Shown here piece after piece: positions 57,522 through 60,754 of a DNA stretch of 64,000 nucleotides. The DNA lies in sequence record OR352952.1; one strand, 5' to 3'. The position numbers and the translations under genes were made by a program. Below the pieces are notes generated by a model. That model saw nothing but the letters and a program-made list of their open reading frames with translations, searched no databases and was not told the DNA's origin. Source of the stretch: Escherichia phage AV122. The stretch's first letter is position 1, and each line of letters opens with the position of its first letter.

Positions 57522-57722
57522 ATGGTACAAAAATTAATGGCACTTGTTAATGCCATAAAAGGTAATAAAAAACGTATAGCTTTTACTATTTCTGCTATGG
57601 TAGGAATTTTACTCTGGAACTTTATTCTATCACCTGTTGCAATTGCGCATGGTATTAATATTCCAGTAGTTACTCTTGATACATTTGTAGATTTAGCATT
57701 TGCTTTAGTTGGGTTGATTTAA
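57522..57722 (+). CDS. small hydrophobic protein on plus strand between 56 and 61
   Basis: 66 aa; strong SD AAGGAGG 4 nt before ATG; two predicted TM-like segments. Confidence 0.45.
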   Translation: MVQKLMALVNAIKGNKKRIAFTISAMVGILLWNFILSPVAIAHGINIPVVTLDTFVDLAFALVGLI

Positions 57723-58747
57723 ATCTTAGCATATTTAGATAGCCGCATTTTAGCCATCAACCCCTGGGCAATATTATTTTTCATATATTCCATAATTTGT
57801 TCAGGGGTTGCACCTTCCTTTCTAATCATATCATTGACATCTTTTGATTTCCAGGGAGATTTATCCCAAAACATAACCCTTTCTCCTGCATCAACTAATT
57901 TAGTCATTCGTTTGATAGTGTCAGGGTGACGAGGTTCATTATCTAAAACCCACACTCGTCTATCTTTAAATGGAACAACTTCTAGGTCTAATTGACCACC
58001 TGTAATAGCTATACCATTTTCAATAAAAAGTGAATCTATAGGTCCTTCTAGAACATATACATCACCATCTTTAACTCGTTCAACACCGTAAATTTTTGTT
58101 GCCTCAGGATAAGCTTTAATGGTGATATATTTTTGAGGAGCATCTTTCTTTAATGCACGTCCTTGAAAAGACTCAGCTTTTCCATTAGCATTATAAATTG
58201 GAATAACAAGACGAGGCTCAGAAATTTCCTTTTTGTATGTTCCCGGTGCTATGCTATTAACTAATTTAGGCCATTCGGTTGTAAACCAAAGATATTTCCA
58301 TTTATCCTTTGGAATACAACGAGCTTTTACATATTTTATAATTGGATGGTCTTCCGCCAGTTTATCTAATCTAACACATGACGGAAGAGATTTAATTATT
58401 TTCTTCTCAGGTTGCTTAGGAAGTTCTTTAGGTTTTTCTACTGGACGACTTTTACCTTTTTCTTTTCTTATTTCAAAGATATACTCACGATATAAATCGG
58501 GTTCAAACTCCTTTAAATATATTCCGATTGGTGCATGATAGTTACAGTTATAACAATGAATATTTCCTTCATTGTTATCACCATAATACCATCCACGAGC
58601 TTTATTCTGGTCGGTTTTTGAATCTCCACAAACAGGACATCTAAACCGCAATTTAAAAGTTGAACTATTATTTACTTGTGTGAATTTAGGTAAATGAGCT
58701 AATGCACGGTATGCAAACTCATTATCAATCCAAGGTATTGATGACAT
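57719..58747 (-). CDS. 61: DNA primase gp61
   Basis: 342 aa; zinc ribbon CPVC...CYNC and TOPRIM-like region; recognised as T4 gp61. Confidence 0.95.
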   Translation of the reverse strand: MSSIPWIDNEFAYRALAHLPKFTQVNNSSTFKLRFRCPVCGDSKTDQNKARGWYYGDNNEGNIHCYNCNYHAPIGIYLKEFEPDLYREYIFEIRKEKGKSRPVEKPKELPKQPEKKIIKSLPSCVRLDKLAEDHPIIKYVKARCIPKDKWKYLWFTTEWPKLVNSIAPGTYKKEISEPRLVIPIYNANGKAESFQGRALKKDAPQKYITIKAYPEATKIYGVERVKDGDVYVLEGPIDSLFIENGIAITGGQLDLEVVPFKDRRVWVLDNEPRHPDTIKRMTKLVDAGERVMFWDKSPWKSKDVNDMIRKEGATPEQIMEYMKNNIAQGLMAKMRLSKYAKI

Positions 58748-58749
58748 TT

Positions 58750-58914
58750 TTACTCTTCTTTTTCTTTAGATTCCTCTTTCTTCTTTTTAGGAATCTGTTC
58801 AGGACCTTTATTTACTACAGCACCTGACGTTGTTCCAGTAGAGATATTTTCAGGATTACCACCTGAATCTCCAGCGACCATATCTTCTTTAATAAATTCT
58901 TTATATGTTTTCAT
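58750..58914 (-). CDS. small Lys/Glu-rich protein (61.1 position)
   Basis: 54 aa by manual translation (MKTYKEFIKEDMVAGDSGG...). Confidence 0.4.
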   Translation of the reverse strand: MKTYKEFIKEDMVAGDSGGNPENISTGTTSGAVVNKGPEQIPKKKKEESKEKEE

Positions 58915-58960
58915 ATTAACCTCTATTCATAAAAGCATTAAAAATTTGGTCATCAATAGA
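58912..58960 (-). repeat. 49-nt repeat copy A at 3' end of 118-aa ORF
   Basis: Matches 59270-59318 with 3 mismatches. Confidence 0.75.
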
Positions 58961-59272
58961 TGGCGCAGTAATATTTTCTGCATCATTTAGCAAATCATTA
59001 ATTTCATCAGATAGCATAACACATGTACCTTTATTTCCTGTAATTGTTACTGCACAATTACGAACGTTTTCTTTATCAAATTTTAGGTTAATATTTTCGT
59101 AGTGAAAATCCTTTAATGCCGAATATATCTTTAAAATGAAATTGTCTTTTACTACAATAAACCCAACCTCACTATTAAAACGCGGTTCATGGAAACTGTA
59201 ATAAACCTTTTCATCTATAAAATCGTATGAAATTTTTTCCATTTTTAAATATGAAAATTCAGAACTATACAT
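58916..59272 (-). CDS. hypothetical protein, truncated paralog of next ORF
   Basis: 118 aa; C-terminus SIDDQIFNAFMNRG shared with 208-aa ORF. Confidence 0.55.
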   Translation of the reverse strand: MYSSEFSYLKMEKISYDFIDEKVYYSFHEPRFNSEVGFIVVKDNFILKIYSALKDFHYENINLKFDKENVRNCAVTITGNKGTCVMLSDEINDLLNDAENITAPSIDDQIFNAFMNRG

Positions 59273-59318
59273 ATTAACCTTTATTCATAAAAGCATTAAA
59301 AATTTGATCGTCAATAGA
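59270..59318 (-). repeat. 49-nt repeat copy B at 3' end of 208-aa ORF
   Basis: Matches 58912-58960 with 3 mismatches. Confidence 0.75.
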
Positions 59319-59900
59319 AACTTTTACTTTAGGCTGTTCTTCAAACGGTAATTCATATCCACATATTACAATTTTGTGATCGATACCAAAATACACAGAA
59401 GCAATATTATTAATATTATTTTCAGTGAAATCTAAATCAACATCAATATCTTTTTGACCACAGCCCAAAGGATAAATAATGCGAGTAATTCGATTATCTT
59501 TAACAAATATTCCACCGACATACTCTGTGCTGCGTTTAAAGTCTACACGCCGACGAAATGAAAAATATTCAGGCTCTTTATGAGCTCGGCTCATAGGACA
59601 CAACGAGTAACTAGAATAAGAGATGTCAAATCCTACACCTTCGATATGAGCCAAAGTGTCATGATTAAACCAATTATAATCGTACGCCAAATCCATTAGA
59701 TTATAATATGTAAAAGGCACCGGATTAACATCATTAGTCACAAGCATGTAATTAGCAACTGCTATAATTTCATTGTTTTTAACGAATACAAACCGTGATT
59801 GATGCGAATGACCTGGACCCGCGTTTTCACGATTAATGATATAACACTGGGCACCTTTATATTTGTATGTATCTTTGCACTTGTGCATTTGATAGAGCAT
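59274..59900 (-). CDS. hypothetical protein (T4 61.2 position)
   Basis: 208 aa; C-terminus SIDDQIFNAFMNKG. Confidence 0.6.
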   Translation of the reverse strand: MLYQMHKCKDTYKYKGAQCYIINRENAGPGHSHQSRFVFVKNNEIIAVANYMLVTNDVNPVPFTYYNLMDLAYDYNWFNHDTLAHIEGVGFDISYSSYSLCPMSRAHKEPEYFSFRRRVDFKRSTEYVGGIFVKDNRITRIIYPLGCGQKDIDVDLDFTENNINNIASVYFGIDHKIVICGYELPFEEQPKVKVSIDDQIFNAFMNKG

Positions 59901-60193
59901 TATTCACCTACCACTTCAGCGATGATATTTTTATTATTAAAGTTTTTATCGCAATACAGAACATAATTATACTGCATTACACCACCAGACTTAAGCTGTT
60001 TTTGCACTTCAGCTTTCATTTCAGGGCGATCGCGCTCAACGATATTCATAATATCTGCTTCAATTTGAGTTTCAACCTCAGTCTGATCAGCAGTCATAGA
60101 CCATTCGCACAAATCTTTATCATAACCTGCCATAGCAGGCTGAGCAGCACAAGAAGCTAAAGCAAAAATTGTGGCAAAGATAAATTTTTTCAT
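59900..60193 (-). CDS. sp: Spackle-like periplasmic protein (61.3 position)
   Basis: 97 aa; cleavable signal peptide ending AQPAMA; early promoter 60222-60251. Confidence 0.65.
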   Translation of the reverse strand: MKKFIFATIFALASCAAQPAMAGYDKDLCEWSMTADQTEVETQIEADIMNIVERDRPEMKAEVQKQLKSGGVMQYNYVLYCDKNFNNKNIIAEVVGE

Positions 60194-60221
60194 GATAATC
60201 TCCTCAGTAGTTTATGTTTAT

Positions 60222-60251
60222 ATAGTATCTCAATTTCCAACAAAAGTAAAC
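60222..60251 (-). promoter_or_regulatory. early promoter upstream of sp
   Basis: GTTTACT, 17 nt, TACTAT. Confidence 0.55.
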
Positions 60252-60253
60252 AG

Positions 60254-60511
60254 TTATTTTAAAACTTCTGCGTAATCACATGTTACAAACTGTTTCTCTA
60301 GCTTAACGATCTTACGAAAATACCTTTTACACTGACGAATCTGTCGCTTCGTAGGACGTACAGCAAACTTAATAAATTCCACTCGACCAAATGGAGGACT
60401 TTCTTCTGCTGGAATATCTAACACCAATTCCCACGTATCTGCAATAAGTGCTTTAAATTGTGTATTTTTCCTGACGTTATACGGAGTAGGTTTAAATAAA
60501 ACAATATGCAT
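60254..60511 (-). CDS. hypothetical protein (61.4 position, start trimmed)
   Basis: 85 aa from ATG 60511; track start overlaps dmd. Confidence 0.5.
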   Translation of the reverse strand: MHIVLFKPTPYNVRKNTQFKALIADTWELVLDIPAEESPPFGRVEFIKFAVRPTKRQIRQCKRYFRKIVKLEKQFVTCDYAEVLK

Positions 60512-60512
60512 A

Positions 60513-60695
60513 TTATCCTCGGCAATCCACTTCACATACTTTCTTGTCATCAATGAAAGCTTCAACTAATGCTTTATTAACTTCAGCATATTGAGTAGTA
60601 GCCCATTGAACGTCATCTTTCATCATTGTGATTTCTTTAGTAAACATGCTTTCATTCTTAAACCACCCCATAAAAACTACCTTTACCAATTCCAT
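60513..60695 (-). CDS. dmd: Dmd antitoxin-like protein (61.5 position)
   Basis: 60 aa immediately downstream of gene 41; early promoter 60725-60754. Confidence 0.65.
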   Translation of the reverse strand: MELVKVVFMGWFKNESMFTKEITMMKDDVQWATTQYAEVNKALVEAFIDDKKVCEVDCRG

Positions 60696-60724: not shown

Positions 60725-60754
60725 ACTATACCATAGTCTTGTCAGCTTGTAAAC
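60725..60754 (-). promoter_or_regulatory. early promoter upstream of dmd
   Basis: GTTTACA, 17 nt, TATAGT; overlaps gene 41 stop. Confidence 0.55.

Follow-up and report, generated by a model that had tools for sequence, protein, structure and literature searches.

Two open reading frames (ORFs) that lie in tandem upstream of the primase gene in a stretch of 64,000 nucleotides (nt) from Escherichia phage AV122 (OR352952.1; the whole stretch is here called the window) end in a nearly identical 49-nt direct repeat. By homology and location, the upstream ORF of 208 amino acids (aa) (59274..59900, minus strand) is adfA, the gene of anti-DarT factor A, and the downstream ORF of 118 aa (ORF118; 58916..59272, minus strand) is a single-domain paralog of it; the two are assigned as old tandem members of an AdfA family that is small and Tevenvirinae-restricted. 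The repeat would be the 3′ module of this family, comprising the codons of a C-terminal helix (DDQIFNAFM plus three residues, hereafter the tail), the stop codon, and, for the gene that follows, a ribosome-binding site and start codon. Within one genome, gene conversion would keep the tails alike at the DNA level, and the tails would act as crossover points at which unequal homologous recombination removes or adds the ORF118 cassette, giving loci with adfA and ORF118, with ORF118 only, or with adfA only. We regard this account of the gene and repeat anatomy and of its evolution, with old paralogs, a tail module, conversion and recombination joints, as probable. The 1551 nt around the locus are a 100% match to Citrobacter phage PhiZZ6 (MT176424, genus Tequatrovirus).

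The two ORFs are assigned to one AdfA family

The 208-aa ORF matched the Pfam AdfA model (PF23813) over its full length (model positions 1-211) with 455.6 bits against a cut-off of 27, and it was 94% identical to T4 gp61.2. It also lies at the same position, downstream of sp and upstream of 61.1 and 61, in the gene order of T4 and RB69. On this homology and synteny, the ORF is the ortholog of T4 gene 61.2. The original prediction had placed it in the 61.2 position and named 61.2 as a reported anti-DarT factor; both statements hold, as gene 61.2 has been equated with adfA in published work (PMC11257639; bioRxiv 10.1101/2022.04.14.488369; Pfam PF23813). AdfA was reported to neutralize DarT1 by binding: AdfA(R164H) binds DarT1 in a two-hybrid assay, the single R164H change in RB69 switches this binding on, and T4 carries His there; deletion of adfA in T4 gave no phenotype (PMC11257639). 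The AdfA of the window has Asn165 (codon at 59406..59408, minus strand) in the column of RB69 Arg164 and the T4 His, and the DarT1-neutralizing His allele was not found; this mismatch concerns allele specificity and not AdfA family membership. Sf21 also has Asn in this column, which makes a third natural adfA allele. Furthermore, AdfA residues ~1-55 (59736-59900, minus strand) occur in two strongly divergent allelic forms, that of T4 and PhiZZ6 and that of RB69 and Sf21 (seen in loci L004 and L025), which are combined mosaically with a more conserved remainder, and many records match the adfA body only at query positions 1-416.

ORF118 matched the same Pfam model with 31.9 bits (gathering score 27), at model positions 113-211 only, so that the N-terminal half of the model was left unmatched. 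Its protein cluster likewise carries PF23813 as precomputed Pfam label. ORF118 forms a separate PHROG family, phrog_4122 (E = 2e-72); it was first listed as RB32ORF033c, and the annotation of RB32 labels the gene "similar to gp61.2" (RB32 record). In BLASTP, ORF118 paired with residues 109-208 of AdfA (106 aa aligned, 37% identity, E = 2e-10). When the 14-aa tails were removed, the local score between the two proteins was still 62, compared with 30.9 ± 5.2 for shuffled sequences, and none of 500 shuffles reached it (z ~6). Thus, homology persists after tail removal, and the earlier claim that the two ORFs are paralogs with diverged upstream bodies was borne out.

The structural models agree with a one-module protein beside a two-module one. 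In AlphaFold2 (AF2) prediction, ORF118 reached a mean predicted local distance difference test (pLDDT) score of 83.4 and a predicted template modeling score of 0.71, and all five models agreed on a compact fold of five strands, a helix, a strand, a second helix, a linker and the tail helix (residues 106-115), that is, one beta-sheet/helix module plus tail and not the two-module architecture of AdfA. The AF2 model of AdfA was weaker (mean pLDDT 68.5) and displayed the same strand/helix order twice, at residues ~18-75 and ~112-171, followed by the tail helix at 196-205. In hhalign, the N-terminal half of AdfA aligned in register with the ORF118 profile, at a weak E = 0.0075, and with its own C-terminal half at 9e-4. 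These data suggest that AdfA may be an internal duplication of an ORF118-like module. A search of solved structures by sequence gave no match to AdfA. The idea of AdfA as a fusion of a 145-type and a 119-type gene was dropped, the co-linear similarity being too weak for any claim (E = 0.15 and 0.019). Two local features of ORF118 were also observed. The second helix, SDEINDLLND (residues 88-104; 58961-59010, minus strand), was aligned by hhalign to the AdfA tail and resembles a second, diverged tail, and the linker before the tail is a small hypervariable patch (ENITAP, EKVAIP or EDITVP).

An exhaustive hidden Markov model (HMM) search of 1.84 billion representative proteins returned five real clusters, all ending in DDQIFNAFM[NK][KR]G: ORF118, AdfA, the 119-aa protein of VR25 type, and a pair of more distantly related single-domain proteins (125 and 120 aa). 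The genes of this pair lie directly after sp in distant T4-like contigs, where the single-domain form is the only one. One further hit, P0009 (1921 aa, coiled coil), was discarded as a spurious compositional match. Found separately from this search, a further tail-bearing family of ~145 aa (phrog_8539), ending in G or D, occupies the slot between sp and 61.1 in Dhaka- and Gapriverviruses. Foldseek with the ORF118 model against BFVD recovered family members only, including the 145-aa VR25 protein (E = 2e-4).

Relatives differ by one-period indels that end in the repeat

The repeat lies at 59270-59318 (copy A) and 58912-58960 (copy B) on the minus strand, with 46 of 49 nt identical (three mismatches), a 26-nt perfect core and a period of 358 nt. 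Copy A consists of the last 14 adfA codons (SIDDQIFNAFMNKG), the TAA stop codon and the ORF118 start in the junction TAATATG; copy B consists of the last 14 ORF118 codons (SIDDQIFNAFMNRG), the TAA stop codon and the start codon of gene 61.1. A search for the 49-mer with up to three mismatches found these two copies only in the 64-kb window, and the mean number of matches in 100 dinucleotide-preserving shuffles was 0.00. The near-identical 3′ ends and the ~49-nt repeat with three mismatches, stop codon and next start included, had therefore been described correctly, as confirmed by the direct comparison and the shuffles.

Alignment of T4 with the window revealed a single gap of exactly 358 bp, one period of the repeat; ORF118 is absent from T4, and the single adfA tail of T4 is identical to the downstream copy B of the window. 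A second lineage presented the same picture, as locus L017 lacks exactly 361 bp relative to VR25, namely the 119-aa gene, and retains the upstream tail variant. In both cases, the indel length equals the period and one repeat copy is left. In T2, sp is followed by a 12-nt spacer (TTAGAGGTTAGT) and the start of ORF118, with no adfA; the last 13 nt of this junction including the start codon (AGAGGTTAGTATG) match the tail end at 12 of 13 positions. Relatives are thus set apart by exact indels of one period, with their ends inside the tails.

The haplotypes were counted by junction-specific searches of 50,697 phage records, the counts being of records and not of independent isolates. Among Tequatrovirus records, 157 had adfA and ORF118 and 141, T2 included, had ORF118 only, which sum to 298 records with ORF118; about 123, T4 included, had adfA only, as calculated from 421 - 157 - 141. 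The proposal that this locus is evolving was thereby supported, since its content varies among relatives, T4 being without ORF118 and T2 without adfA. In the neighboring dmd-tifA locus, T4 is known to use microhomologies of 6-10 bp for recombination (bioRxiv 10.1101/2022.04.14.488369), so that 49 nt of repeat, with 26 nt of perfect core, should offer ample substrate. That several genera have ORF118-type genes favors repeated loss over gain.

Other irregular loci were noted in these searches. Yersinia phage phiD1 (L005 2440-3360) carries adfA, ORF118, a 33-aa ORF118 fragment with a tail, and ORF118 again, in a stretch that contains Ns; this double ORF118 could reflect either a genuine tandem duplication at the tails or an error of assembly. 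A two-piece match in Pinarejo, considered as a duplication, turned out to be an ordinary two-gene locus. About 74 Tequatrovirus records, PhiZZ6 not among them, have a second, separate match elsewhere in the genome to part of the 1551-nt query (58700-60250), and this second match is neither the ORF118 body nor the adfA body.

Codon usage gives modest support for gene conversion between the tails

The two tails of the window use the same codon at 10 of the 12 degenerate positions, compared with 6.2 expected (P = 0.023), whereas in the aligned bodies a codon is shared at no more than 6 of 23 identical residues, with 11.4 predicted by codon usage. Between the paralog tails of a single genome there are 1-4 differences in 36 nt, and between tails of one family from different genera 3-6, two ranges that overlap and hold few informative sites; for the bodies, orthologs are much more alike than paralogs. 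The two VR20 tails match at 38 of 39 nt and both use the less common codons TTC, CAG, AAG and GCC. Moreover, the Asp codons GAT and GAC swap between the two tail positions among PhiZZ6, Sf21 and RB32. The gene conversion offered in the original prediction is thus plausible in view of the codon excess and the within-genome likeness of the tails, but its support is modest. We hold with moderate confidence that conversion keeps the tails of one genome alike.

Conversion could be dispensed with if an invariant peptide and T4-like codon bias sufficed to make the tails alike and if each indel arose once and was then inherited. The core has just eight synonymous sites, the P value of the codon test is not lower than 0.023, and the within-genome and between-genus ranges overlap, all of which such an explanation would accommodate. 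However, it would not account for the lack of comparable codon matching in the bodies, for the less common codons common to both VR20 tails, for the Asp codons that switch tail positions, or for the two independent precise indels that retain different tail variants. We therefore judge an origin of the likeness free of conversion to be unlikely.

The tail peptide is under strong purifying selection

All family members end in DDQIFNAFM[NK][KR][GD], and this tail holds 9 of the 13 columns that are invariant when ten diverse members are aligned. In 22 tails drawn from four or more genera, the 27-nt core that encodes DDQIFNAFM varied at seven sites, all in third position and all synonymous. Because all variation in the core is synonymous, selection acts on the tail peptide and is very strong, so that the tail amino-acid sequence is held by strong purifying selection. 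A degenerate DNA pattern of the tail matched 16 loci in IMG/VR and 12 in metagenomes, every one of them in the sp-61.1 slot of a T4-like contig, and had no match in 185,579 bacterial and archaeal genomes. In every examined locus that holds a tail-bearing gene, sp is immediately upstream of the first one. By these searches, the tail is confined to genes between sp and 61.1 in T4-like phages.

The repeat might instead be conserved chiefly as a DNA or RNA signal, such as a promoter, a ribosome-binding site for translational coupling or another regulatory site for the downstream gene, and not as protein. Indeed, the tail is followed by a stop codon that overlaps the next start or lies one to few bases from it, usually as TAATATG, and the last two tail codons also serve as the Shine-Dalgarno sequence for the gene that follows, so that the last ~13 nt (A[AG]AGGTTAATATG) hold a Shine-Dalgarno sequence, the stop and the overlapping next start in every locus. 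These two codons vary with the downstream gene: in the sampled genomes, the tail ends in KG (AAAGGT) or RD (AGAGAT/CGAGAT) before an ORF118-type gene and in RG (AGAGGT) before 61.1; in the window, the terminal AAAGGT of copy A is a weak and the terminal AGAGGT of copy B a strong Shine-Dalgarno sequence. Since the endings follow the downstream gene, a DNA-level signal explains the last ~13 nt but not the rest of the repeat. The tail sequence AATGCTTTT, followed by 12 nt and TAATAT, also resembles a MotA-dependent middle promoter. Nevertheless, Gapriver-, Dhaka- and Mosigvirus have TGCCT or TGCAT in place of the MotA-like TGCTT with no change in the peptide, a sigma-70 scan showed no enrichment and flagged nothing at the tails, and neither T4 record annotates a promoter there. 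A promoter at the tails was rejected on these three grounds, the resemblance to the MotA box not being kept outside Tequatrovirus. The absence of any first- or second-position change at the variable sites of the core is a signature of peptide selection. Conservation chiefly as a nucleic acid signal is thus very unlikely, and selection on the tail peptide is the reading that we retain.

ORF118 is an old and intact gene

ORF118 DNA occurs in 298 phage records at 84-100% identity, and counterparts 46-49% identical occupy the same slot in the Gaprivervirus members VR25 and VR20. Because the gene bodies are saturated at synonymous sites and ORF118 is widely distributed, the duplication that separated ORF118 from AdfA is dated by these comparisons as old, not recent. 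The original prediction had read the repeat as a recent partial duplication, in which the identical 3′ end would be the part of an adfA copy that has not yet diverged in this phage lineage. A 94%-identical 49-nt tract that adjoins much more diverged sequence does have that appearance. However, the bodies share only 37% aa identity with codon matches below the codon-bias expectation, ORF118 has its own PHROG family and is found in T2 without adfA, and Gaprivervirus as well as more distant T4-like contigs have counterparts with the same tail. A recent duplication is refuted by this distribution of ORF118 and by the saturated bodies, and we leave it hardly any credence. Of the refuting alternative named in the original prediction, half holds: ORF118 is a conserved, independent gene with the same terminal repeat, yet some T-even phages lack it.

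It is scarcely conceivable that ORF118 is the decaying remnant of an earlier adfA copy and lacks a function of its own, for although it spans only half of the AdfA model and one metagenome contig (L062) may carry an interrupted copy, the frame is intact and its length constant wherever it was sampled, its orthologs evolve with a ratio of nonsynonymous to synonymous substitution rates (dN/dS) of 0.09-0.35, the five AF2 models agree on its compact fold, it is the sole family member in the 141 T2-type records, and single-domain members are the only form in distant T4-like contigs. By these measures, ORF118 is a real, conserved gene under purifying selection that matches the C-terminal domain of AdfA only. 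In the contig just mentioned (L062 99-428, a T2-type locus), the longest Met-initiated frame of ORF118 seems to be only 33 aa, which could stem from a sequencing error or mark a pseudogene.

The locus lies in a block of anti-toxin genes

The minus-strand block runs in the order gp41 helicase, dmd, 61.4 (tifA), sp, adfA, ORF118, 61.1 and primase gp61. The upstream neighbor sp (spackle) lies at 59900..60193, and 61.4 (tifA, anti-ToxN) and dmd (anti-RnlA) at 60254..60695; downstream, gene 61.1 (54 aa, 58750..58914) has its start codon inside repeat copy B and is followed by the primase gene (57719-58747), all on the minus strand. The dmd-tifA-adfA region has been termed the anti-toxin-antitoxin (anti-TA) island (bioRxiv 10.1101/2022.04.14.488369). 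Upstream of dmd, a strong early-type promoter match was observed at 60725-60753 (minus strand; TTTACA, 17 nt, TATAGT, with TG), and a scan of the window found no terminator-like sites between 58600 and 60800. With an early-type promoter before dmd and no terminator-like sites down to the primase gene, the anti-TA genes and 61.1/61 look co-transcribed, which suggests that they form one transcribed block. Between gene 56 and the primase gene, where T4 has dam, the window holds a hydrophobic 66-aa ORF on the plus strand (57522-57722).

Neighboring content also differed among the other loci. Between the tail gene and 61.1, Dhaka-, Gapriver- and Mosigvirus-type loci (L010-L017, L021, L019, L061 and L063) also hold a TifA (61.4) paralog of 73 aa, a conserved ORF of 63-65 aa, or both, so that the content of the anti-TA island differs by genus. 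In the RB69-like locus L019 (2700-3167), the 61.1 match is the C-terminal end of a longer 155-aa frame (phrog_2086), and the RB69 record (L025 1751-2217) annotates the 61.1-matching stretch as two genes, 61.1 and RB69ORF032c.

Discussion

Several observations weigh against parts of the account given above. The reading of the AdfA N-terminal half as a copy of the ORF118-like module rests on weak hhalign scores, the codon test for conversion is modest, and shared codon preferences of a lineage could explain part of the within-genome likeness of the tails. The T4 and L017 indels are compatible with loss and gain alike. The tail helix of ORF118 was modeled with low confidence (pLDDT 54-58). Finally, T2 has an ORF118 that is 97% identical and no adfA, and T2 lacking adfN is sensitive to DarTG1.

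The last point bears directly on function. T4 and T2 lacking adfN are both sensitive to DarTG1, and T2 was described as naturally lacking an adfA homolog (PMC11257639); it appears that the half-size paralog was overlooked when T2 was so described. Given that T2 carries ORF118 without adfA, its sensitivity when adfN is lacking indicates that ORF118 at native level does not counter that DarT1, and by the same reasoning from T4 lacking adfN, neither does native T4 AdfA. Homology to AdfA, location in the anti-TA island and the shared tail make ORF118 a candidate toxin-binding inhibitor with a target other than the tested DarT1; we put this forward tentatively, at somewhat less than an even chance. 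In such a protein, the variable body would set the toxin target, and the shared tail helix would give a common contact or assembly function. As a speculation, the low confidence of the amphipathic tail helix in the model would suit a segment that binds a partner. A bolder version, which we consider unlikely, is that the invariant 12-residue helix is the shared "warhead" or docking motif of a modular anti-toxin family in which the bodies choose the target and the DNA coding for the helix is the recombination joint, so that T4-like phages would shuffle, stack or drop anti-defense cassettes in one slot in an integron-like manner but via ordinary homologous recombination. If this were true, ORF118 would be a new inhibitor of a target other than the tested DarT1.

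Comparison with known systems places the locus as an extension of one of them. With AdfA (T4 61.2, RB69 gp61.2; PF23813), the 208-aa ORF shares full-length membership and an orthologous position, and ORF118 shares the C-terminal module, the identical tail and the same operon-like block. The differences are that the allele of the window has Asn and not the DarT1-neutralizing His or the Arg of RB69, and that ORF118 has one module instead of two and in T2 gives no protection against the tested DarTG1. The anti-TA island of T4, in which dmd (61.5) acts against RnlA and tifA (61.4) against ToxN beside adfA, is the same genomic block, and it likewise consists of small early genes that directly inhibit toxins and recombines at short repeats; there, laboratory amplifications arose at 6-10-bp microhomologies, whereas here a 49-nt coding repeat joins standing natural haplotypes (Srikant et al., bioRxiv 10.1101/2022.04.14.488369). 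AdfB of Vibrio phage ICP1, an anti-DarT antitoxin mimic, is likewise reported to be a small phage protein that blocks DarT by interaction and varies naturally in specificity among alleles (PMC11257639), but no sequence relationship to it was found, and AdfB was absent from the results of the searches made here. As in the concerted evolution and unequal crossing-over of tandem families, a short high-identity tract lies in diverged paralogs and copy-number variants differ by one period; in the present case, however, the tract is only ~49 nt long and coincides with a strongly selected peptide, and conversion and selection are not fully separable.

Relative to the available literature, the family-wide invariant tail, its restriction to one slot and the three-haplotype polymorphism joined at the tail appear to be new. 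The larger ORF is a known gene and the smaller one an uncharacterized single-module variant, so that a known system is extended and no new kind is added. Few phage proteins, AdfA among them, are known to block a DNA ADP-ribosylating toxin, and AdfA has been treated in publications as a single gene; the single-domain paralog is carried by about 300 sequenced records of T4-like phages, T2 included. The role of the invariant C-terminal helix is easy to test, and researchers working on DarTG and on anti-TA genes gain concrete candidates and constructs. The locus is, furthermore, a clean natural example of how T4-like phages remodel an anti-defense island.

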